IMG/VR virus record: IMGVR_UViG_2698536428_000001
Location: 1 to 21,453 of that record
Direction: 5' to 3' (one strand)
DNA length: 21,453 nucleotides
Origin: a virus
Lineage: Duplodnaviria > Heunggongvirae > Uroviricota > Caudoviricetes
A program made the translations under genes and the position numbers. Under the pieces are notes generated by a model that was not told the origin of the DNA, searched no databases, and saw only the letters and a list, made by a program, of their open reading frames with translations. Positions 1 to 9,452 of this stretch are shown here, one piece after another. Numbering within the stretch: position 1 is the first letter of the stretch; every line of letters starts with the position of its first letter.

Positions 1-1
1 A

Positions 2-619
2 ATCACGGGCGGCGACCCCGTGGAAATCAACCCGAAATATGAAAAGCGTTTCACTACGGTAATCAGGGCGGTGGTGCTGGCGACCAATAACAACCCGATG
101 ATATTCACCGAACGGGCCGGAGGCGTGTCACGTCGTCGGGTTATTTTCCGCTTCGACAATATCGTAAGCGAGGCAGAAAAAGACAGGGAGCTACCGGAAA
201 AGATCGCGGCTGAAATCCCAGTCATTATCCGCCGCTTGCTGGCGAACTTTACCGACCCTGAGAAGGCACGGGCTTTACTACTGGAACAGCGTGACGGTGA
301 TGAAGCTCTGGCAATAAAGCAACAGACGGATCCGGTTATTGAGTTTTGCCAGTTCCTGAATTTTCTGGAGGAAGCGCGCGGCCTGATGATGGGTGGCGGT
401 GGCGATTCAGTGAAGTACACGACCAGGAACAGCCTTTACCGCGTCTATCTGGCGTTTATGGCATACGCCGGAAGGAACAAGCCGCTAAACGTGGCTGAGT
501 TCAGCAAAGCTATGAAGCCAGCGGCGAAAGTTTACGGGCATGAATATATTACGCGGAAAGTCAATGGAGTTACGCAGACTAACGCAATAACAACAGACGA
601 TTGCGACGCGTTTTTATAA
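2..619 (+). CDS. Primase/helicase C-terminal region (P4 alpha / PICI Pri-Rep type), 5'-partial at window edge
   Basis: Frame is open from base 2 with no start inside the window (ORF track shows the 20..619 portion). Translation (…VIRAVVLATNNNPMIFTERAGGVSRRRVIFRFDNIV…) resembles the C-terminal domain of P4-family phage/plasmid primases. An iteron array lies immediately downstream, as expected for a rep gene. Confidence 0.55.
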   Translation: MTGGDPVEINPKYEKRFTTVIRAVVLATNNNPMIFTERAGGVSRRRVIFRFDNIVSEAEKDRELPEKIAAEIPVIIRRLLANFTDPEKARALLLEQRDGDEALAIKQQTDPVIEFCQFLNFLEEARGLMMGGGGDSVKYTTRNSLYRVYLAFMAYAGRNKPLNVAEFSKAMKPAAKVYGHEYITRKVNGVTQTNAITTDDCDAFL

Positions 620-629
620 TTTTTTGCAA

Positions 630-860
630 AAGCCCTCTACCTCCTCTACCTGAAAGGAATAAATGCATATTATTCAATATGATAAGTGGGTAGAGGGCCA
701 GGTAGAAGGCTAATAAAAACCCTCTACCTCTTCTACATGATTTTATCAATTCCAGGTAGACAGGTAGAGGTCTGGTAGAAGGGGATTAAAAGCCCTCTAC
801 CATGCTGAAAGGTGCGCCATTGCTGGATTTTTGCAGTGCTTGGTAGAAGGGGTAGAGGGA
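630..860. repeat. Iteron cluster, putative replication origin
   Basis: About 12 copies of an 8-9 bp motif GGTAGAGG / CCTCTACC (variants GGTAGAAGG, GGTAGAC) in both orientations, mostly in pairs 9-12 bp apart (e.g. 634-650, 689-709, 721-736, 754-782, 794-801, 842-859), flanking an AT-rich segment (661-686). Sits directly 3' of the primase gene. Confidence 0.55.
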
Positions 861-906
861 GGGAGGCACAACTCAAAACTTTTTAAACGAGGGGGTAAAA
901 ATAAAA

Positions 907-1164
907 ATGCGCACATCAGGAAAACTTAATAATCAGAAGAAGCAGCATAACCGCGCCATTGACCTTACAGAGCACTGGCTGAGAGTGGCGATAAAAATCA
1001 TCGACCGCAACACGGGGGAAGGATACGCGAAAGCACATCCCGAACTGATAAGCGCATTCATGACCACGGAGGCGGCAAACTTTGCCACGCTGACAGAACG
1101 GGAGATTGCCGAAGCGGAACAGGTAACAACCATCAACGTTAAAACCGGAGAGCAGACAGCATGA
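907..1164 (+). CDS. Hypothetical protein (85 aa)
   Basis: ORF with GAGGGGG Shine-Dalgarno 11 nt upstream of the ATG; stop overlaps the ssb start (ATGA), suggesting translational coupling. No recognisable family. Confidence 0.45.
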   Translation: MRTSGKLNNQKKQHNRAIDLTEHWLRVAIKIIDRNTGEGYAKAHPELISAFMTTEAANFATLTEREIAEAEQVTTINVKTGEQTA

Positions 1165-1571
1165 CAGCACAGATAGCAGCTTACGGGCGGCTGGTGGACG
1201 ACCCGCAGGTAAAACAGACCAGCAAGGGTACACCGATGACGCTGGCGCGTATGGCGGTATCTTTGCCATGCAGTCAGGCACAGGACGGACAGGCAGCGTT
1301 ATGGCTATCAGTCCTGGCATTTGGTAAGCAGGCCGACGCGCTGGCGAGACATGAAAAAGGCGACCTTATCAGCGTGGCGGGTAACATGCAGATCAGCCAG
1401 TGGACCGGACAGAACGGGGAAACGCGGCAGGGTTATCAGGTTATTGCAGACAGCGTAATCAGTGCCCGTGCGGCACGTCCTGGCGGGAACAGACGCAAGA
1501 CCACAGGCACACAGGGTAATCAGCCACCAGCGGGAGGCGATGACCATTACGGTGATGATATTCCGTTCTGA
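1161..1571 (+). CDS. ssb: Single-stranded DNA-binding protein (SSB)
   Basis: 136 aa. N-terminal OB-fold pattern typical of SSB (GRLVDDPQ…TPMTLARMAV…WLSVLAFGKQADALARHEKGDLISVAGNMQISQWT…) and the hallmark acidic C-terminal tail ending DDIPF. GGAGAG RBS upstream. Confidence 0.8.
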   Translation: MTAQIAAYGRLVDDPQVKQTSKGTPMTLARMAVSLPCSQAQDGQAALWLSVLAFGKQADALARHEKGDLISVAGNMQISQWTGQNGETRQGYQVIADSVISARAARPGGNRRKTTGTQGNQPPAGGDDHYGDDIPF

Positions 1572-1581
1572 GGGGGTGAGG

Positions 1582-1854
1582 ATGGTACATGACCGCATAG
1601 CGGAGGAACTCGAGGCAAAAGGCTTTTACCGGAGGGCGGCGGCACGATGGGGTGAAGTCATGCAACTGGTGGAGACAGACAAGGAACGGCATCAGGTTAC
1701 GATGCGACGGCTGGAATGTTCCAGGAAGGCACAGAAGCCACCGGAGCCGCCGGATAACTTCGGAGACCTGAGAAAGGCAGTAGATCGCACTTATGCTGAA
1801 ATGGGTATAGATGGTGTAAGCGATGAAATATGGCGTAATTACCCAGACAGCTAA
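1582..1854 (+). CDS. PerC-family transcriptional regulator-like protein (90 aa)
   Basis: ATG at 1582 preceded by a strong RBS (GAGGGGGTGAGG). N-terminus MVHDRIAEELEAKGFYRRAAARWGEVMQ resembles PerC/Pch-family activators as I recall them. The longer ORF from 1462 overlaps ssb and lacks an RBS. Confidence 0.45.
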   Translation: MVHDRIAEELEAKGFYRRAAARWGEVMQLVETDKERHQVTMRRLECSRKAQKPPEPPDNFGDLRKAVDRTYAEMGIDGVSDEIWRNYPDS

Positions 1855-1861
1855 TCAATAG

Positions 1862-1884
1862 CCGGAGTAATCCGGCTTTTTTGT
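1862..1884 (+). terminator. Rho-independent terminator
   Basis: Stem GCCGGA / TCCGGC with GTAA loop followed by TTTTTT, just after the perC-like stop. Confidence 0.7.
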
Positions 1885-1889
1885 ACCCA

Positions 1890-1933
1890 AAAAAAGCCCG
1901 ATAAGTACAGGAGGCATCTTATCGGGCTTTTGC
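1890..1933. terminator. Bidirectional terminator-like hairpin
   Basis: 10-bp stem GCCCGATAAG / CTTATCGGGC flanked by an A7 run on the 5' side and TTTTG on the 3' side. Confidence 0.5.
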
Positions 1934-2010
1934 ATATGAGGTTTTTTTTGGTGCACTGACACACATGATCTGGATCATCATTTCATAATTTGCAACACAA
2001 CTCAACATCA

Positions 2011-2038
2011 TTGCATAAAATGCAATCATGATTATAAT
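2011..2038 (+). promoter_or_regulatory. Sigma70-type promoter for the capsid-paralog operon
   Basis: TTGCAT (2011-2016), 16-bp spacer, perfect TATAAT (2033-2038), about 55 nt upstream of the first operon ORF. The -35 lies inside the palindrome ATTGCAT-AAA-ATGCAAT. Confidence 0.5.
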
Positions 2039-2043
2039 CAGAT

Positions 2044-2059
2044 CTGGATGAACATCCAG
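2044..2059. promoter_or_regulatory. Putative operator (perfect inverted repeat CTGGATG-AA-CATCCAG)
   Basis: Perfect 7-bp inverted repeat immediately downstream of the -10 element, overlapping the predicted transcription start. Has CTG-N10-CAG spacing but is off the LexA consensus. Confidence 0.4.
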
Positions 2060-2094
2060 TTATGATTTTTTAAGTCAAAGAGGAATTTCTTACT

Positions 2095-2301
2095 ATGGCT
2101 GAAGAGAAAAAAGGCGGTGTTTCGGTGTACATAAGCCCCGACATCGTGAAGGCGCTCAAGGAACGCCACCAGCAGAACGTAAAAGCAGGCATTGCGGCAG
2201 GACTTGATCCGCTGGCGATGGTTGAGCCGTCAACAGGCTGGCAGGTACGCGCCTATTTACGCGCGGCGCTGGGTATGAATCAGGTTCACGGGGGTGAATA
2301 A
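2095..2301 (+). CDS. Hypothetical protein (68 aa), first gene of the capsid-paralog operon
   Basis: ATG preceded by AAGAGGAA RBS. Stop TAA overlaps the ATG of the next gene (TAATG), suggesting translational coupling. Confidence 0.5.
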   Translation: MAEEKKGGVSVYISPDIVKALKERHQQNVKAGIAAGLDPLAMVEPSTGWQVRAYLRAALGMNQVHGGE

Positions 2302-3356
2302 TGACAGTAAAAGCAATATCACTTAACACTAACCAGCTTTTTGCGTACCTGAATCGCGAGGATATTGCGGAATTTAAATTCAGTCCGCTGTTTACCGCGC
2401 TGTTTTTCCCGAACGTGGCGACATTCAACACACAGGACATCATGTTAGATAACCTGGATATTGAAGAAGTCACTATGTCGGCGTTTTGTTCGCCTATGGT
2501 GGGTAGCCAGGTTCAGCGCGATAAAGGGTACGAAACAAGCATTATTCGCCCTGGCTACATGAAGCCAAAACACGAAATCGATCCATTAAAAACAATAATG
2601 CGCATGGCTGGAGAAGATCCGGCACAGCTTAACGACCCTACCTACCGCCGTATGCGCCTGATTACTGGCAACATGCGCCGCCAGATAAACGCCATTAAAG
2701 CGCGCGTGGAATGGCTGGCGGTAAATGCGGTAACGACCGGAAAAAACATCATTGAGGGCGAAGGCATAGAGCGCTATGAAATCGACTGGAAGATACCGGA
2801 AAAAAACATCATAGAGCAGGCCGACGGTAAAAAATGGTCAGAGCAGGACAAAGACATACACGACCCAATCTATGACATTGAGCTATACGCAGATCAGGCA
2901 GGTTGCCCCGCAAACGTCATGATTATGGGCGTTGATGTATGGCGCATGTTACGCAGCTTTAAAAAATTCCGTGAACTGTACGATCTCTCCCGTGGTTCAG
3001 AATCCGCCGCAGAGCTGGCATGTAAAAACCTGGGAGAAGTGGTGAGCTTTAAAGGCTATCTTGGTGATCTGGCCCTTATCGTCTATTCCGGCAAATACAC
3101 TGACAGCGACGGCACAGAAAAATATTTCCTTGAGCCTGATTTGCTGGTCCTGGGCAACACCAACAATAAAGGGCTGGTGGCCTATGGTGCGATTATGGAA
3201 CAGGAAGCGGTAAGAACGGGCGCAACGCAAAACATGTTTTACCCGAAAAACTGGATTGAAGACGGCGATCCGGCGATTGAGTACGTGCAGACACACAGCG
3301 CACCGCAGCCTGTTCCGGCAGATATTCGCAAATTTGTTACCGTCAAAATTGGTTAA
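2301..3356 (+). CDS. Major capsid protein, divergent paralog of lambda gpE
   Basis: 351 aa, colinear with lambda gpE (341 aa) along its whole length, with conserved blocks such as PGY(M/V)KPKHE, DP.YRR.R.I and YPKNW; roughly 35-45% identity by eye. Clearly distinct from the lambda E copy at 8427-9452. Confidence 0.8.
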   Translation: MTVKAISLNTNQLFAYLNREDIAEFKFSPLFTALFFPNVATFNTQDIMLDNLDIEEVTMSAFCSPMVGSQVQRDKGYETSIIRPGYMKPKHEIDPLKTIMRMAGEDPAQLNDPTYRRMRLITGNMRRQINAIKARVEWLAVNAVTTGKNIIEGEGIERYEIDWKIPEKNIIEQADGKKWSEQDKDIHDPIYDIELYADQAGCPANVMIMGVDVWRMLRSFKKFRELYDLSRGSESAAELACKNLGEVVSFKGYLGDLALIVYSGKYTDSDGTEKYFLEPDLLVLGNTNNKGLVAYGAIMEQEAVRTGATQNMFYPKNWIEDGDPAIEYVQTHSAPQPVPADIRKFVTVKIG

Positions 3357-3358
3357 CG

Positions 3359-3703
3359 GTGGATTCTATGAACACTCCATACATTGAGTTATTTGCAGGC
3401 AGTCAGCAGGTATCAACGACGCTGGTACATTTTGCCGCTGATGCTGGCGTTATTCAGGAATTTACCCCGCTGATGCTGGCGGACAATGGCGAGTTTAAGC
3501 CGTGGGATGGTCAGGAATCTGGCAAGGCTGTTTATCTGACCTCGTACCCCGTTGACACGTCGACGCAGAAATCAGCACAGTGCTATAAGACGGGGATATT
3601 CAATATCGCCGCCGTTAACTGGCCTGAGAGCGTCGACACCGATGCGAAAAAATGCGCCGCCTTTGCGGGTTCTGGCGTATCCGTTCAGCCGCTGGCCAGA
3701 TAA
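3359..3703 (+). CDS. Capsid decoration protein, divergent paralog of lambda gpD
   Basis: About 111-114 aa. Aligns with lambda gpD (110 aa): TPLMLADNGEFKPWDG versus [17 protein letters not shown], and C-terminal KKCAAFAGSGVSVQ versus [14 protein letters not shown]. Start is either GTG 3359 or ATG 3368; the RBS is weak for both. Confidence 0.75.
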   Translation: MDSMNTPYIELFAGSQQVSTTLVHFAADAGVIQEFTPLMLADNGEFKPWDGQESGKAVYLTSYPVDTSTQKSAQCYKTGIFNIAAVNWPESVDTDAKKCAAFAGSGVSVQPLAR

Positions 3704-3715
3704 GCAGGGGGAACG

Positions 3716-4129
3716 ATGGCAACGAATGAAAGCATCATGGCGCTACCGCTGGCGAGTAAATTTAAAGCCGAAGCGCGGGCAATGGCTGACAGAGGGTTAT
3801 CAACCTACGAGGCCGTATATCAACTCAACAAACTGGAAGAACAGGACAAGCCGCGCGCTGATGCGATTATGGCGCTTCATGAACATAACGACTATCAGCC
3901 GCTGTTACGTGCAATGGCAAACGTGCCATGTATTAGCGTCGATAATGCTCGTGAAATCCTGAACATGACCATAGAGCAGGAGCGCCCAAAGGTTGCACCA
4001 GAGCTTACCGCAGCCTTTGAAAACTTTATGGACATGCACAGCCCGCAAGCCGTATCAGCTGGCATGGCATACGATGGCAGAAACCAGGGCGATGACGGCG
4101 ACATCGATCACATACTGAAAACCATCTGA
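3716..4129 (+). CDS. Hypothetical protein (137 aa), last gene of the capsid-paralog operon
   Basis: ATG preceded by a GGGGGA RBS and followed by a strong terminator. No recognisable similarity to lambda FI/FII or other families by eye. Confidence 0.5.
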   Translation: MATNESIMALPLASKFKAEARAMADRGLSTYEAVYQLNKLEEQDKPRADAIMALHEHNDYQPLLRAMANVPCISVDNAREILNMTIEQERPKVAPELTAAFENFMDMHSPQAVSAGMAYDGRNQGDDGDIDHILKTI

Positions 4130-4135
4130 GACAAG

Positions 4136-4159
4136 GCCGGAGAAATCCGGCTTTTTTTT
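4136..4159 (+). terminator. Rho-independent terminator
   Basis: Stem GCCGGA / TCCGGC with GAAA loop followed by T8. Confidence 0.75.
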
Positions 4160-4160
4160 A

Positions 4161-4228
4161 CGGGTCCTTTCCGGCATATGGACCCGTTACGGGGCGGCGA
4201 CCTCGCGGATTTTCGCTATTTATGAGAT
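4161..4228 (+). other. Lambda-type cos segment copy 1 (cosQ-side flank, cosN, proximal cosB), rightward orientation
   Basis: Contains the lambda 12-nt cohesive-end sequence GGGCGGCGACCT (4192-4203) within GTTACGGGGCGGCGACCTCGCGGATTTTCGCTATTTATGA, nearly identical to the lambda cosN region as I recall it (…GGGCGGCGACCTCGCGGGTTTTCGCTATTTATGAAAATTTTCCGG…). Confidence 0.7.
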
Positions 4229-4241
4229 TTTTTGAGGGGGT

Positions 4242-4387
4242 GGTTGTTGTTTAATTGTTTGGTATATCTAATTGATAAGTAAGGTAAAAATAAAATAAAT
4301 ACAACAACCTTACGATGTATTTTGATGTCATTAATGTGAAAAAATTCAATGATATCAAATGGTTTTGTAAAAACACATGGTTGTTGT
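4242..4387. repeat. GGTTGTTGT repeats (two direct, one inverted) in the AT-rich core; candidate cosB R-like sites for cos copy 1
   Basis: GGTTGTTGT at 4242-4250 and 4379-4387, inverted ACAACAACC at 4300-4308. An IHF-like TATCAAATGGTTT lies near 4349-4361. Spacing from cosN is on the same scale as the lambda R3-I1-R2-R1 arrangement. Confidence 0.35.
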
Positions 4388-4563
4388 ATCGCGTATTTGA
4401 TGGCGTAACAGAAAGTGATTTTTAACTTTACCGCTCTGTAACTACGGATTATTCCATGCTGGCACGGAGAACGGCTACGGCATGACGCCACCCAGCCTAT
4501 ACAGAACAGTAAAGCCGATAAATTGTTAATCACGCGCAGCAATGCGTGTGATTTTTGCACACT

Positions 4564-4677
4564 TCCGGTTAACGGGTACGATGTCCGGTTTTAGTGTCTG
4601 TTTTTTGCGCATGTCCGGTTCATAGAAAGCATGTTTTTATATTTTTCATATGGTTAACTTGCAGAGAAACCGGACAT
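4564..4677. repeat. ATGTCCGGTT repeats (two direct, one inverted, one partial); candidate cosB R-like sites for cos copy 2
   Basis: ATGTCCGGTT at 4581-4590 and 4611-4620, inverted AACCGGACAT at 4668-4677, partial TCCGGTT at 4564-4570. They sit on the cosB side of the minus-oriented cosN, with AT-rich DNA between the inverted and direct copies. Confidence 0.4.
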
Positions 4678-4691
4678 GGATCCCGGAAAAT

Positions 4692-4759
4692 TTTCATAAA
4701 TAGTGAAAAACCGCGAGGTCGCCGCCCCGTAACGGGCCATAATTCCAGGAAGGACCCGA
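4692..4759 (-). other. Lambda-type cos segment copy 2, leftward orientation
   Basis: The reverse complement reads GGCCCGTTACGGGGCGGCGACCTCGCGGTTTTTCACTATTTATGAAAATTTTCCGG, matching the lambda left-end sequence through about 50 nt. Plus-strand cosN complement AGGTCGCCGCCC is at 4716-4727. Forms a ~68-bp imperfect inverted repeat with 4161-4228. Confidence 0.7.
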
Positions 4760-4791
4760 CGACACCAGACTATCAGAGCGATGGGGGCACA

Positions 4792-5073
4792 ATGACAGAA
4801 GCCGAAATACTGGGATTAATCCGCCGTGCTGGTGGAATCAGCCAGCAGGTTGACGAACAGGCCACGCAGCCGGACAGCGTGACAGCCGAAAATTATGCGC
4901 GTGTTGTTGCTGAGGTGATGCGCCGTGATGGTATCCAGCTTAATGGCGTGGATATGCGCAACATACGAACCAGAGTTCTTGAGTTGCTGGCCTACCGTCG
5001 CCGCGTGGAGATGTATCGGGAGAAGGAGAAAATAACGTACCACTGGAAGAAGCCGGAGCGGTTGCGGCGGTAA
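4792..5073 (+). CDS. Hypothetical protein (93 aa) adjacent to cos
   Basis: ATG at 4792 preceded by a GGGGG RBS; basic, Arg-rich C-terminus. The longer ORF from 4594 starts in AT-rich non-coding-looking DNA and is less likely. Confidence 0.45.
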   Translation: MTEAEILGLIRRAGGISQQVDEQATQPDSVTAENYARVVAEVMRRDGIQLNGVDMRNIRTRVLELLAYRRRVEMYREKEKITYHWKKPERLRR

Positions 5074-5425
5074 CTGGTTGATATTCCCGACGGCCCAAAA
5101 ATGGGTTGGCTACACCACTCACAACTACGACATTTTCGCAGTTTAATTAATGGTCAGCTTAATCGCTAACCCGCTGATATTTTCGGAAACCTCAATTTGA
5201 GGAAGTCGGCGCGGTAACTTGCTGATATTCCCGATAACGCAAAATTGCGCTGGCTGGCAGAGTGCAAATTTGCACGATGGCCTAACCCATTGATTCTTTC
5301 GAAAACCCCCATTGGGGGAGAACGGGGGAATAAACCTGACTCATTGATTCTTCCACAATCCTCAATTTGAGGAAGTCGGCGCGGTAACTCGCTGAACTTT
5401 AAGCAAAGCGCAAAATTGCGCTTGC
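5062..5425. repeat. Three imperfect direct repeats (core CGGCGCGGTAACTNGCTGA…) with embedded palindromes
   Basis: Copies at about 5064-5100, 5188-5250 and 5358-5425. The last two share about 60 bp, including CCTCAATTTGAGGAAGTCGGCGCGGTAACT and GCAAAATTGCGC. Confidence 0.6.
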
Positions 5426-5956
5426 TGAATAATCATTATGATTACGCAGATGATTAAGGAATGACCGAAGGCGGAAATTCGCCTGTGGTTAATGGGGGAG
5501 TTGCAGATCTGCAACTCGACCATGAAACTACGGAAACTACCCGTAGTTTGGGTAGTAAGAGTAACACCCAGATTTTGGGGCTTACTCGTGATACCCAAAT
5601 TTGGGGTATCGGTGGCAACCATAACGACTTTCGTTACGGTTGATGCTTTTACCCCATTGGGGGAAAGGTATTACGATAATCATAACACCTACCGAACAGG
5701 TAAAGCCCACCAGCCTGATTAACGTTTAACCGGAAAAAAATTCCGGTAGGTGGGGATCCCTATATCGACATTAACGCCCACTAAAACTGTGCATATATGC
5801 ATAGAAAAAGCATCCACCAGCTTTATGACGGATGCCGCTCATCTTATAAATAATCGTGTATTGCAGTGTGTATTGCGACTCCTTTAAACGATAGGTCTGA
5901 GCATTCGTAATGTACTGTTTTTAAATTTTATTTTTTCCTGTCTTTTCATAAAAGCC

Positions 5957-6730
5957 ATGTATGCCGCCACCATTGAAAGTGAGCTGGATACGCAGTCAGC
6001 GATGGATTTTATTCTGGGCGCGAACAGTCAGGAGCAGCGGGAAAGGCTGACGGGCTGGATTGGTGAAATTGCCGCGTATTACGCCGCAGCACCGGTCCGT
6101 CTGGGAGGCGCAAAAGTGCCGCACCTGATGCCGGGGGACTCACTGAACCTGCAGACGGCTCAGGACACGGATAACGGCTACTCCGTGTTTGAGCAGTCAC
6201 TGTTGCGGTATATCGCTGCCGGGCTGGGTGTCTCGTATGAGCAGCTTTCCCGGAATTACGCCCAGATGAGCTACTCCACGGCACGGGCCAGTGCGAACGA
6301 GTCGTGGGCGTACTTTATGGGGCGGCGAAAATTCGTCGCATCCCGTCAGGCGAGCCAGATGTTTCTGTGCTGGCTGGAAGAGGCCATCGCTCGCCGCGTG
6401 GTGACGTTACCTTCAAAAGCGCGCTTCAGTTTTCAGGAAGCCCGAAGTGCCTGGGGGAACTGCGACTGGATAGGCTCCGGTCGTATGGCCATCGATGGTC
6501 TGAAAGAAGTACAGGAAGCGGTGATGCTGATAGAAGCCGGACTGAGTACCTACGAGAAAGAGTGCGCAAAACGCGGTGACGACTATCAGGAAGTTTTTGC
6601 CCAGCAGGTCCGTGAAACGATGGAGCGCCGTGCAGCCGGTCTTAAACCGCCCGCCTGGGCGGCTGCGGCATTTGAATCCGGGCTGCGACAATCAACAGAG
6701 GAGGAGAAGAGTGACAGCAGAGCTGCGTAA
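5957..6730 (+). pseudogene. B: Portal protein gene B, 3' fragment (about C-terminal 257 of 533 codons)
   Basis: Translation matches the C-terminal half of lambda gpB as I recall it, and the 3' end overlaps the C start by 20 nt as in lambda. Sequence immediately upstream (5760-5955) is AT-rich and unlike lambda B coding DNA, so the lambda homology appears to begin near 5955. Confidence 0.7.
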
Positions 6731-8029
6731 TCTCCCGCATATTGCCAGTATGGCCTTTAATGAGCCGCTGATGCTTGAACCCGCCTATGCGCGGGTTTTC
6801 TTTTGTGCGCTTGCAGGCCAGCTTGGGATCAGCCGCCTGACGGATGCGGTATCCGGCGACAGCCTGACTGCCGGAGAGGCACCCGCGGCGCTGGCGTTAT
6901 CCGTTGATGATGACGGACCACGACAGGCCCGCAGTTATCAGGTCATGAACGGCATCGCCGTGCTGCCGGTGTCCGGCACGCTGGTCAGTCGGACGCGGGC
7001 GCTGCAGCCGTATTCGGGGATGACCGGTTACAACGGCATTATCGCCCGTCTGCAACAGGCTGCCAGCGACCCGATGGTGGACGGCATTCTGCTCGATATG
7101 GATACGCCAGGCGGGATGGTGGCAGGGGCATTTGACTGCGCTGACATCATCGCCCGTGTGCGTGACATAAAGCCGGTATGGGCGCTGGCAAGCAACTGAA
7201 CTGCAGTGCAGGTCAGTTGCTTGCCAGCGCCGCCTCCCGACGTCTGGTCACGCAGACCGCCCGGACAGGCTCCATCGGCGTCATGATGGCTCACAGTAAT
7301 TACGGTGCTGCGCTGGAGAAACAGGGCGTGGAAATCACGCTGATTTACAGCGGCAGCCATAAGGTGGATGGCAACCCCTACAGCCATCTACCGGATGATG
7401 TCCGGGAAACACTGCAGTCCCGGATGGATGCAACCCGCCGGATGTTTGCACAGAAGGTGTCGGCATATACCGGCCTGTCCGTGCAGGCTGTGCTGGATAC
7501 CGAGGCTGCAGTGTACAGCGGTCAGGAGGCCATTGATGCCGGACTGGCTGATGAACTTGTTAACAGTACCGATGCGATCACCGTCATGCGTGATGCACTG
7601 GATGCACGTAAATCCCGTCTCTCAGGAGGGCGAATGACCAAAGAGACTCAATCAACAACTGTTTCAGCCACTGCTTCGCAGGCTGACGTTACTGGCGTGG
7701 TGCAAGCGACGGAGGGCGAGAACGCCAGCGCTGCGCAGCCGGACGTGAACGCGCAGATCACCGCAGCGGTTGCGGCAGAAAACAGTCGCATTATGGGGAT
7801 CCTCAACTGTGAGGAGGCTCACGGACGCGAAGAACAGGCACGCGTGCTGGCCGAAACCCCCGGTATGACCGTGGAAACGGCCCGCCGCATTCTGGCAGTT
7901 GCACCACAGAGTGCACAGGCGCGCAGTGACACTGCGCTGGATCGTCTGATGCAGGGGGCACCGGCACCGCTGGCTGCAGGTAACCCGGCATCTGATGCCG
8001 TTAACGATTTGCTGAACACACCAGTGTAA
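6711..8029 (+). pseudogene. C: Head protease/scaffold gene C, disrupted by a frameshift near 7180-7199
   Basis: GTG start at 6711 gives MTAELRNLPHIASMAFNEPLML… (lambda gpC). The reading frame ends at TGA 7197-7199 (…KPVWALASN*) and gpC sequence continues in another frame from 7178 (…QLNCSAGQLLASAASRRL…). The span is 1319 nt, not a multiple of 3; lambda C is one ORF of 1320 nt as I recall. Confidence 0.7.
7424..8029 (+). CDS. nu3: Scaffolding protein Nu3 (in-frame internal start within the 3' part of C)
   Basis: ATG at 7424 (MDATRRMFAQKVSAYTGLS…), 201 aa, ending at the C stop as in lambda. Lies downstream of the C frameshift, so it is intact. Confidence 0.75.
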   Translation: MDATRRMFAQKVSAYTGLSVQAVLDTEAAVYSGQEAIDAGLADELVNSTDAITVMRDALDARKSRLSGGRMTKETQSTTVSATASQADVTGVVQATEGENASAAQPDVNAQITAAVAAENSRIMGILNCEEAHGREEQARVLAETPGMTVETARRILAVAPQSAQARSDTALDRLMQGAPAPLAAGNPASDAVNDLLNTPV

Positions 8030-8038
8030 GGGATGTTT

Positions 8039-8371
8039 ATGACGAGCAAAGAAACCTTTACCCATTACCAGCCGCTGGGCAACAGTGACCCGGCTCATAC
8101 CGCAACCGCGCCCGGCGGATTGAGTGCGAAAGCGCCTGCAATGACCCCGCTGATGCTGGACACCTCCAGCCGTAAGCTGGTTGCGTGGGATGGCACCACC
8201 GACGGTGCTGCCGTTGGCATTCTTGCGGTTGCTGCTGACCAGACCAGCACCACGCTGACGTTCTACAAGTCCGGCACGTTCCGTTATGAGGATGTGCTCT
8301 GGCCGGAGGCTGCCAGCGACGAGACGAAAAAACGGACCGCGTTTGCCGGAACGGCAATCAGCATCGTTTAA
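8039..8371 (+). CDS. D: Head decoration protein gpD
   Basis: 110 aa, [27 protein letters not shown]…[11 protein letters not shown]; matches lambda gpD as recalled. Confidence 0.9.
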
Positions 8372-8392
8372 CTTTACCCTTCATCACTAAAG

Positions 8393-8413
8393 GCCGCCTG
8401 TGCGGCTTTTTTT
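8393..8413 (+). terminator. Intergenic D-E stem-loop with T-run (attenuator/terminator-like)
   Basis: GCCGC-CTGT-GCGGC followed by T7, between D and E. Confidence 0.4.
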
Positions 8414-8426
8414 ACGGGATTTTTTT

Positions 8427-9452
8427 ATGTCGATGTACACAACAGCCCAGCTGCTGGCGGCAAATGAGCAGAAATTTAAGTTTGATCCGCTGTTTCTGCG
8501 TCTCTTTTTCCGTGAGAGCTATCCCTTCACCACGGAGAAAGTCTATCTCTCACAAATTCCGGGACTGGTAAACATGGCGCTGTACGTTTCGCCGATTGTT
8601 TCCGGTGAGGTTATCCGTTCCCGTGGCGGCTCCACCTCTGAATTTACGCCGGGATATGTCAAGCCGAAGCATGAAGTGAATCCGCAGATGACCCTGCGTC
8701 GCCTGCCGGATGAAGATCCGCAGAATCTGGCGGACCCGGCTTACCGCCGCCGTCGCATCATCATGCAGAACATGCGTGACGAAGAGCTGGCCATTGCTCA
8801 GGTCGAAGAGATGCAGGCAGTTTCTGCCGTGCTTAAGGGCAAATACACCATGACCGGTGAAGCCTTCGATCCGGTTGAGGTGGATATGGGCCGCAGTGAG
8901 GAGAATAACATCACGCAGTCCGGCGGCACGGAGTGGAGCAAGCGTGACAAGTCCACGTATGACCCGACCGACGATATCGAAGCCTACGCGCTGAACGCCA
9001 GCGGTGTGGTGAATATCATCGTGTTCGATCCGAAAGGCTGGGCGCTGTTCCGTTCCTTCAAAGCCGTCAAGGAGAAGCTGGATACCCGTCGTGGCTCTAA
9101 TTCCGAGCTGGAGACAGCGGTGAAAGACCTAGGTAAAGCGGTGTCCTATAAGGGGATGTATGGCGATGTGGCCATCGTCGTGTATTCCGGACAGTACGTG
9201 GAAAACGGCGTCAAAAAGAACTTCCTGCCGGACAACACGATGGTGCTGGGGAACACTCAGGCACGCGGTCTGCGCACCTATGGCTGCATTCAGGATGCGG
9301 ACGCACAGCGCGAAGGCATTAACGCCTCTGCCCGTTACCCGAAAAACTGGGTGACCACCGGCGATCCGGCGCGTGAGTTCACCATGATTCAGTCAGCACC
9401 GCTGATGCTGCTGGCTGACCCTGATGAGTTCGTGTCCGTACAACTGGCGTAA
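8427..9452 (+). CDS. E: Major capsid protein gpE
   Basis: 341 aa starting MSMYTTAQLLAANEQKFKFDPLF…; matches lambda gpE as recalled along its entire length. Confidence 0.92.
   Translation: MSMYTTAQLLAANEQKFKFDPLFLRLFFRESYPFTTEKVYLSQIPGLVNMALYVSPIVSGEVIRSRGGSTSEFTPGYVKPKHEVNPQMTLRRLPDEDPQNLADPAYRRRRIIMQNMRDEELAIAQVEEMQAVSAVLKGKYTMTGEAFDPVEVDMGRSEENNITQSGGTEWSKRDKSTYDPTDDIEAYALNASGVVNIIVFDPKGWALFRSFKAVKEKLDTRRGSNSELETAVKDLGKAVSYKGMYGDVAIVVYSGQYVENGVKKNFLPDNTMVLGNTQARGLRTYGCIQDADAQREGINASARYPKNWVTTGDPAREFTMIQSAPLMLLADPDEFVSVQLA

Follow-up and report, generated by a model that had tools for sequence, protein, structure and literature searches.

Why should a phage satellite that lacks portal and protease genes carry its own genes for the shell of a lambda-type head? 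This question is raised by positions 2,011 to 4,159 of a 21,453-nucleotide (nt) stretch of viral DNA (Caudoviricetes; IMG/VR record IMGVR_UViG_2698536428_000001, positions 1 to 21,453), the whole of which is called the window here. The region lies in an operon of four genes, which encode a small protein (orf68), a relative of the lambda major capsid protein gpE (E-like), a relative of the lambda decoration protein gpD (D-like) and a further small protein (orf137). It is the capsid-gene operon, homologous to c1498-c1501, of a phage-inducible chromosomal island (PICI) of the EcCICFT073 family. The first-pass annotation of the window had considered such a satellite-borne pair to be new; the same genes were described in 2018 as c1498-c1501 of EcCICFT073 (PMC6092414), and what was seen is a correct sighting of something already described, the element itself being known and only this copy of it new. 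The identity of the region is secure, whereas its mechanism is not. Besides the identity of the operon, the analysis established its fold, context, lineage, selective constraint and prevalence.

The DNA of the window is about 92% identical to that of E. coli CFT073 over positions 1-4232 and 4493-5085, and the matching locus, which corresponds to the first ~5.1 kb of the window, lies at 1383377-1388666 of the CFT073 chromosome. This locus is EcCICFT073, the model Gram-negative PICI (PMC6092414). The operon has the same order and the same protein lengths in the two elements (68, 351, 111 and 137 amino acids, aa), with protein identities of 98.6%, 95%, 96% and 92%, and the primase, the ori, SSB, PerC, the cos sites and an open reading frame (ORF) of 93 aa are likewise common to both. 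The supplement of the 2018 paper lists c1499 with 351 aa, c1500 with 111 aa and, without annotation, c1501 with 137 aa (PMC6092414). Inside the window the PICI backbone is represented by the C-terminus of the primase, the iterons, SSB, PerC, the late zone and two cosN sites; the satellite context that had been read from these parts held up, the primase C-terminus, SSB and PerC being recognized by Pfam. Of the satellite, no more than the right half falls within the window. Both int and alpA are outside, the same arrangement being present in relatives, and attL is also beyond the window.

The four genes were found where they had been placed, and the E-like and D-like proteins are full-length, diverged homologues of gpE and gpD, as the first-pass annotation had proposed. 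Profile and BLAST searches confirmed both family memberships and also returned related satellites. The E-like protein matched the Pfam family PF03864 (Phage_cap_E) with E = 3.9e-49 and 167.9 bits (cut-off 22.9) over profile positions 14-328 of 329, and is 43% identical to the E protein of the helper prophage that follows in the window. It is 95% identical to PDB entry 3BQW, the crystal structure of CFT073 c1499. The AlphaFold2 (AF2) model of E-like (predicted local distance difference test, pLDDT, 80) gave a template-modelling (TM) score of 0.95 to 3BQW, and a TM score of 0.90 with a root-mean-square deviation of 2.2 Å to lambda gpE (7SJ5). The modelled chain superimposes on lambda gpE, and the protein has the HK97-type fold. 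The D-like protein matched PF02924 (HDPD) with E = 3.7e-18 and 66.2 bits (cut-off 29.1) and is 37% identical to helper D. Its best solved relative was chain 1TD0 ('head decoration protein', 5.9e-14), which we take to be SHP of phage 21; lambda decoration chains were matched at about 1.5e-9. The D-like gene adjoins the gpE-type capsid gene, starting 12 nt past its stop codon, and this order, E then D, is the reverse of the D-then-E order of the helper, as had been noted. The substitutions that are fixed between PICI and phage versions of the capsid protein are concentrated in two places, the spine helix with the strand next to it (residues 128-156) and the P-domain strands near the C-terminus (330-342); a 4-residue insertion is also present in the N-arm. 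These clade-specific regions are plausible contact regions, which is only suggestive.

The scaffold of lambda is Nu3, whose gene is nested in that of protease C, so that the C-terminal part of the protease and Nu3 have the same sequence. The operon had been described as having no portal, protease, scaffold or terminase of its own. This holds for the portal, the protease and the terminase, whereas orf137 is scaffold-related: profile matches show its homology to the C-terminal part of Nu3, the scaffold of lambda and phage 21, a part with which protease C also ends. The protein matched phrog_1999 at 1e-63 and, at 7e-10, positions 494-567 of 583 of phrog_53 ('head maturation protease'). The reciprocal searches agreed, phrog_1999 being matched by residues 116-199 of the Nu3 in the window (1.5e-26), by the C/Nu3 end of the phage-21-like phage 204576 (5e-48) and by a 195-aa three-repeat scaffold (1e-41). 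A profile-profile alignment of orf137 with Nu3 (hhalign) gave a probability of 95% and E = 3.6e-8, and in tblastn orf137 was 37% identical to the end of gene C in phage 204576, directly 5' of the D and E genes of that phage. No alignment was obtained by BLASTP between orf137 and the lambda-type Nu3 of the window. The relationship is detectable only by profiles or through phage-21-type sequences, and this lack of a plain BLASTP match to Nu3 may be the reason why orf137 stayed unannotated.

Other searches with orf137 returned little. It had no match in Pfam, NCBIfam or PDB, its model found nothing significant among viral structures with Foldseek (best E = 1.3), and phmmer against 1.84 billion representative proteins gave 8 matches only, which indicates that the family is narrow. 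RefSeq calls one allele 'phage head-tail connector protein' (NZ_CP091704.1, 2958426-2958841) and nearly all others 'hypothetical protein'. The AF2 model consists of helices over residues 1-92, a disordered stretch at 96-132 and a terminal helix at 128-136. The first 44 residues show a weak, non-significant resemblance to the Nu3 repeat unit, and an internal duplication, with E = 0.013 in a tiny search space, is suggestive only. The gene is free-standing, 3' of D-like, and not nested in an S49 protease gene in the manner of Nu3. In the literature searched (PICI with Nu3 or scaffold; 3BQW) nothing ties c1501 to Nu3 or to a scaffold. We infer that the end shared by C and Nu3 is the capsid-binding part. 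The operon is thus predicted to encode three components of shell assembly, namely a gpE-type capsid protein, a gpD/SHP-type decoration protein and a mini-scaffold with the C-terminal part of Nu3. The Nu3 homology is a modest new lead, which turns 'two stray capsid genes' into a coherent three-part assembly set.

The E-like and D-like genes are not confined to CFT073 and the window. Protein searches found full-length relatives, 50-92% identical, in E. coli, Salmonella, Edwardsiella, Lelliottia, Serratia, Cedecea and Scandinavium, while tblastn against 50,697 phage records gave no relative of E-like above 48% identity and none of D-like above 45%. Three genomic contexts were inspected, in Salmonella, Edwardsiella and Serratia; each was a PICI, with int, alpA and a primase or replicase, in which the D gene comes directly behind E in order, and none contained a portal or protease gene. 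The E-then-D pair is conserved in PICIs of these three genera and of E. coli. In neighbour-joining trees, a distance method applied to few taxa, PICI E and PICI D each formed a separate clade with 100% bootstrap and congruent subclades, distinct from the lambda/N15, 21/Gifsy and myovirus-associated types. An origin by recent capture from the resident helper was rejected, given the 43% and 37% identity to helper E and D and these separate, fully supported clades.

The ratio of nonsynonymous to synonymous substitution rates (dN/dS), calculated on close pairs because dS was saturated for distant ones, was 0.07-0.23 for E-like and 0.03-0.18 for D-like. These values are as low as those of helper genes and below those of the neighbouring satellite ORFs, the module being the most strongly constrained part of the late region, and they show purifying selection on both genes. 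Among 5426 complete E. coli genomes, 598 (~1 in 9) contain a full-length E/D pair; orf137, found in 591, co-occurs with it. Taken together, these data indicate that the E-like and D-like genes form a functional, satellite-specific lineage.

The place of the satellite in the window explains the second pair of shell genes that lies further downstream. From ~5950 onwards the sequence is that of a lambda-type portal gene, entered part-way along its length (Pfam Phage_portal_2, profile positions 238-354) and followed by C/Nu3, D, E and the tail genes through to J. The satellite/portal junction lies between ...IVKA and MYAATIESE..., the portal reading frame resuming at MYAATIESE according to the comparison with attL and attR of the same type of insertion in strain A5; attR includes a short block of identity, ...AAAGCCATGTATG... 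A similar satellite splits the portal gene in strains A5 and 48, leaving Nu1-A-W-B' on the left and 'B-C-D-E on the right. The doubled arm-type motif seen at attR and the class of helper-embedded sites, with B among the main target genes, have been described (PMC10111431). The island is a helper-embedded PICI, inserted in the same orientation in portal gene B of a lambda-like prophage. A related PICI of Edwardsiella tarda (GCA_001700615.1, 1-17047) has the E-then-D pair and is embedded in the portal gene of a phage-21-type helper, which indicates that portal-embedded satellites with the module are not confined to E. coli.

The downstream pair had been called lambda-identical, and this is exact for E and nearly so for D (109 of 110 residues); the pair belongs, however, to the helper whose portal gene the satellite interrupts. 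The same is true of the portal and protease genes seen in the window, and the nearby terminase is likewise the helper's. The satellite part of the window (1-5950) contains no ORF or Pfam match for a portal, a protease, a head-tail connector or a terminase large subunit. For this reason, the possibility that the operon is the head region of a second ordinary prophage was rejected: it sits in a PICI backbone devoid of portal and protease genes, and those for the portal, C, D and E nearby are part of the interrupted helper. In the helper C gene a 1-nt deletion with respect to strain A5, situated in a small patch of mismatches, splits C into ORFs at 6576-7199 and 7178-8029, which reflects either a real defect of the helper or a mistake in the sequencing.

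The operon (2095-4129) consists of closely spaced plus-strand genes bounded by terminators (Table 1). The regulatory block upstream of orf68 was conserved in an alignment of E. coli, Salmonella and Edwardsiella PICIs, and we infer that it functions as a promoter; a scan with the promoter consensus made no call at 1883-2094. The palindrome in this block is probably an operator, for which orf68, PerC and AlpA are candidate regulators. The orf68 gene is conserved 5' of the E-like gene in Salmonella and Edwardsiella PICIs, and appears to be translationally coupled to it, its stop codon overlapping the E-like ATG (TAATG). Its product matched phrog_3255, of unknown function, at 8e-37 and had no match in Pfam or NCBIfam. 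It contains a conserved segment, GGV(S/T)VYIS-DIV-AL, which looks like the start of a ribbon-helix-helix protein, with no family match in support.

Downstream of the operon, the 72-nt inverted arms flank an AT-rich segment of 454 nt, in which the only recognizable feature is a remnant of the 3'-end of rppA (4428-4496, minus strand). This slot contains no rpp or terS gene; the same slot is occupied in CFT073 by rppA, whose product matches RppC (PDB 6HLK) at 5e-31, and in strains A5 and 48 by terS. What lies between the inverted cos arms may be a variable cassette that can possibly be inverted. The 93-aa ORF that follows was considered as an Rpp homologue and rejected, as it has no PDB or Pfam match, whereas the 144-aa protein of CFT073 matches RppC 6HLK. 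Between this ORF and attR, at 5067-5427, there are families of direct repeats of 45-60 nt (for example 5166-5225 and 5336-5395, 82% identical, and 5067-5111 and 5211-5255, 80%), which could be protein-binding sites for packaging or recombination. An Rfam scan of the window found no RNA family.

Table 1. Positions in the window of the operon genes, the control and packaging sequences of the satellite and the head genes of the interrupted helper.
Feature	Position	Strand	Description
Iterons CCTCTACC	628-860		Upstream of operon
Terminator-like hairpin with T-run (intrinsic)	1860-1882		Before the upstream intergenic region
Regulatory region	1883-2094	+	Palindrome, TATAAT, possible -35, further TTGCA motifs
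Palindrome ATTGCATAAAATGCAAT	2010-2026		Perfect, 17 bp; overlaps -35 and spacer of promoter-like site
Promoter-like site	-35, 2011-2016; -10, 2033-2038		Possible -35 TTGCAT; -10 TATAAT; spacing TTGCAT-16 nt-TATAAT
orf68	2095-2301	+	c1498 by position; 98.6% identical to CFT073 C_RS07005
E-like (= c1499)	2301-3356	+	351 aa; lambda gpE-family major capsid protein, HK97 fold
D-like (= c1500)	3368-3703	+	111 aa from ATG; 114 aa from GTG at 3359
orf137 (= c1501)	3716-4129	+	137 aa; small, predicted helical protein; residues ~45-137 homologous to the C-terminal part of Nu3
Terminator-like hairpin with T-run (intrinsic)	4133-4159	+	Ends operon
Packaging region	4161-4758	.	Two inverted cosN inside 72-nt inverted arms
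cosN GGGCGGCGACCT	4192-4203; 4716-4727	+; -	Exact lambda cosN
93-aa ORF	4792-5073	+	84% identical to CFT073 C_RS07030; phrog_1561; conserved in EcCICFT073-type PICIs
Satellite right end (attR)	5853-5957	+	Doubled GTGTATTGC at 5853-5878; portal B junction ~5945-5957
Helper head genes	5957-9452	+	Downstream of insertion
Helper portal B, 3' part	to 6730	+	
Helper C	6711-8029	+	Frameshifted near 7190
Helper Nu3	7424-8029	+	Nested in C; intact
Helper D	8039-8371	+	109/110 identical to lambda gpD
Helper E	8427-9452	+	341/341 identical to lambda gpE

We consider a structural role to be the most likely one for the operon. Ahead of its rivals we favour, tentatively and at slightly less than an even chance, the formation of satellite-encoded or chimeric shells of normal size. 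Induction would be followed by transcription of the operon from its own promoter, which is conserved and probably regulated, and, for as long as the island stays embedded, also by late read-through from the helper. The products of the operon would join the head assembly driven by the helper. With the portal and protease of the helper as a base, E-like subunits would be nucleated or chaperoned by the Nu3-like tail and would make up the shell lattice, wholly or in part; once this lattice has expanded, D-like would stabilise it at positions where helper D may be a poor fit. The resulting particles, in which shells that are satellite-built or chimeric are joined to portals and tails of the helper, would probably have the normal size (T=7), and their benefit would escape transfer assays made in the laboratory with lambda or phi80. 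We know of no role for decoration proteins of the gpD/SHP type except on an assembled, expanded gpE-type shell. Considering that a cognate D, known to act only on the assembled lattice, is conserved in the satellites, we argue that E-like probably assembles. Moreover, as the capsid, decoration and scaffold-tail genes are kept together, constrained and confined to satellites, a role in head assembly would be the simplest explanation.

Several observations weigh against shells of this kind. The satellite has neither portal nor protease; its shell protein, which shares just 43% identity with helper E, would depend on the B, C and head-completion proteins of the helper. The PICI E clade does not track the helper head type, and in other PICI sublineages that keep E and D, orf137 is absent or has helix-turn-helix (HTH)/AlpA-like genes in its place. 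The literature searched contained no electron-microscopy, assembly, capsid-composition or proteomic results on the module. The published genetics of EcCICFT073 points in the same direction. The 2018 paper that described c1499 (capsid) and c1500 (head decoration) also raised and tested the analogy with the capsid protein homologue Ccm; deletion of c1499 or c1500 did not restore lambda plaques and left transfer unchanged, and the DNA packaged in lambda particles was all phage-sized (PMC6092414). In 2019 the genes beyond the ori were cloned singly; only c1503 (rppA) blocked lambda, its deletion fully restored plaques, and the genes of the module caused no inhibition of lambda (PMC6739421). In 2023 an island in which melA replaced the operon (c1498-c1501::melA) was transferred by phi80 delta-cosN at 5.2e7 transductant-forming units (TFU)/ml, as compared to 6.3e7 TFU/ml with the operon intact, the comparator being an island marked at c1504-c1507 (PMC10460865, Table S2). 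A review and the study of helper-embedded PICIs (PMC10111431) describe the capsid gene as common in Gram-negative PICIs (21 of 29 reference elements) and dispensable, and reviews state that EcCICFT073 uses full-size capsids.

These published negatives rule out that the module is required for laboratory transfer by phi80, lambda or the CFT073 helper, and they rule out a role in lambda interference; they also argue against small capsids. They concern transfer and interference, not the make-up of the particles, and the operon may have another structural role. The marked islands of 2018 were named c1501::tetA and c1499::cat, and a later strain table lists a 2018 strain as c1504-c1507::cat; given this inconsistent naming, the test of packaged-DNA size may have been made with a disrupted operon. 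The wider suspicion that all published negatives were confounded by markers inside the operon was partly withdrawn, because islands marked at c1504-c1507 and c1498-c1501::melA islands are transferred equally.

The first-pass annotation had suggested that the operon redirects capsid size as Ccm does, E-like (with D-like and orf137) forcing small capsids that hold one satellite genome of ~11-12 kb and exclude the helper genome. A satellite capsid homologue, Ccm, does this in SaPIbov5 (cited in PMC6092414), and CpmB of SaPI1 is an alternative scaffold that redirects size (cf-PICI preprint), while orf137 is itself related to a scaffold; the clustered E-like substitutions at 128-156 and 330-342, the 4-residue insertion in the N-arm and the doubt over the islands named c1501::tetA and c1499::cat also count in favour of the idea. 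We nevertheless consider it very unlikely, since the phage-sized DNA and the failure of the c1499 and c1500 deletions to relieve interference (PMC6092414), the full recovery of lambda plaques upon deletion of rppA alone (PMC6739421), the equal transfer by phi80 of islands with an intact or fully replaced operon (PMC10460865) and the full-size capsids given in reviews all speak against it. It is less improbable, although still unlikely, that the satellite E, D and Nu3-like genes are spare copies that compensate for helper head genes that are interrupted (insertions occur in A, B, C and E), poorly expressed or defective, as in decayed helpers. Captured late genes have indeed been proposed to act as 'a backup intact copy', in a study where capsid genes were the commonest late gene of Gram-negative PICIs and E the commonest insertion target (PMC10111431); in the window, the three satellite genes are homologous to genes just downstream of the B and C insertion sites, and helper C is frameshifted. 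However, the gene interrupted here is the portal gene B, which the satellite does not supply, and helper D and E are intact and of lambda type. EcCICFT073 is not embedded in a helper and yet keeps the module, and the lineage appears old, distinct from every sampled helper type and not recently captured.

Capsid proteins are common triggers of bacterial immune systems. The capsid-like proteins of the satellite could then have a non-structural role as decoys, triggers or blockers, in capsid-sensing defence or in the superinfection exclusion of lambdoid phages, and the combination of strong constraint with no transfer or interference phenotype in standard assays would fit such a role. It would leave unexplained why a cognate decoration protein and a scaffold-tail homologue occur and evolve together with the capsid protein; the genes expressed singly left lambda plating unaffected (PMC6739421), and the searches made here gave no direct evidence for it. 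We regard a role of this type, too, as unlikely. Finally, the genes might be functionless passengers, that is, recently captured or decaying prophage head genes, as the lack of a laboratory phenotype could suggest. This is highly improbable and conflicts with the evidence of conservation: dN/dS lies at 0.03-0.23, full-length ORFs occur in four genera and in 598 E. coli genomes, the clades of E and D stand apart from phages and are mutually congruent, and the promoter region is conserved.

The module is therefore of interest for a simple reason: it occurs in about one in nine complete E. coli genomes and is strongly constrained, yet every published knockout is silent. If its proteins enter particles, classical PICIs are not pure capsid thieves, and this would matter for engineered PICI/lambda delivery particles, in which the operon is routinely swapped for cargo.

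The arrangement in the window can be compared with several known systems. With respect to EcCICFT073, the window copy lies in the portal gene of a helper, not at a chromosomal site, and has no rppA (c1503) between the inverted cos sites. With the helper-embedded PICI Eco567.11capE it shares a gpE-family capsid gene of its own and the doubled arm-type motif beside the att site; that prototype is inserted in gene E, whereas the element of the window is in B, another reported target (PMC10111431).

Like the E-like protein, Ccm of SaPIbov5 is a satellite-encoded homologue of the HK97-fold major capsid protein of the helper. Ccm, however, gives small capsids and interference, whereas the published EcCICFT073 homologues give neither, and the capsid gene of the window is accompanied by a decoration protein and a homologue of the scaffold tail. 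CpmB of SaPI1 resembles the helper scaffold specifically at its C-terminus. It is a small satellite scaffold that binds the helper capsid protein and redirects size (cf-PICI preprint), and orf137 is similarly small, predicted to be helical and, by sequence, a homologue of the Nu3 tail; in contrast to CpmB, orf137 is paired with the satellite's own capsid protein and would not act solely on that of the helper. In lambda and phage 21, C-Nu3, D (SHP) and E are of homologous families with a shared fold, but the satellite order is E, D, Nu3-like instead of C/Nu3, D, E, there is no protease domain, identities are 37-48%, and the clade was absent from the phages searched.

A last comparison is with the capsid-forming PICIs (cf-PICIs), such as EcCIEDL933, in which a PICI backbone likewise encodes its own major capsid protein. 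The cf-PICIs carry a full head and packaging set (portal, protease, head-tail connectors, HNH, TerS and TerL), whereas the element of the window has only E, D, a Nu3-like tail and cos sites; no portal, protease, connector or TerL of its own lies in the satellite part. It is possible, though on balance doubtful, that c1498-c1501 constitute a 'shell kit' for satellite-encoded or chimeric shells, which would confer particle stability, a different helper range, use of defective helpers or an altered capsid size only with natural helpers or under other conditions. The EcCICFT073-type islands would then be intermediate between the classical PICIs, which steal whole capsids, and the cf-PICIs, which take tails only.

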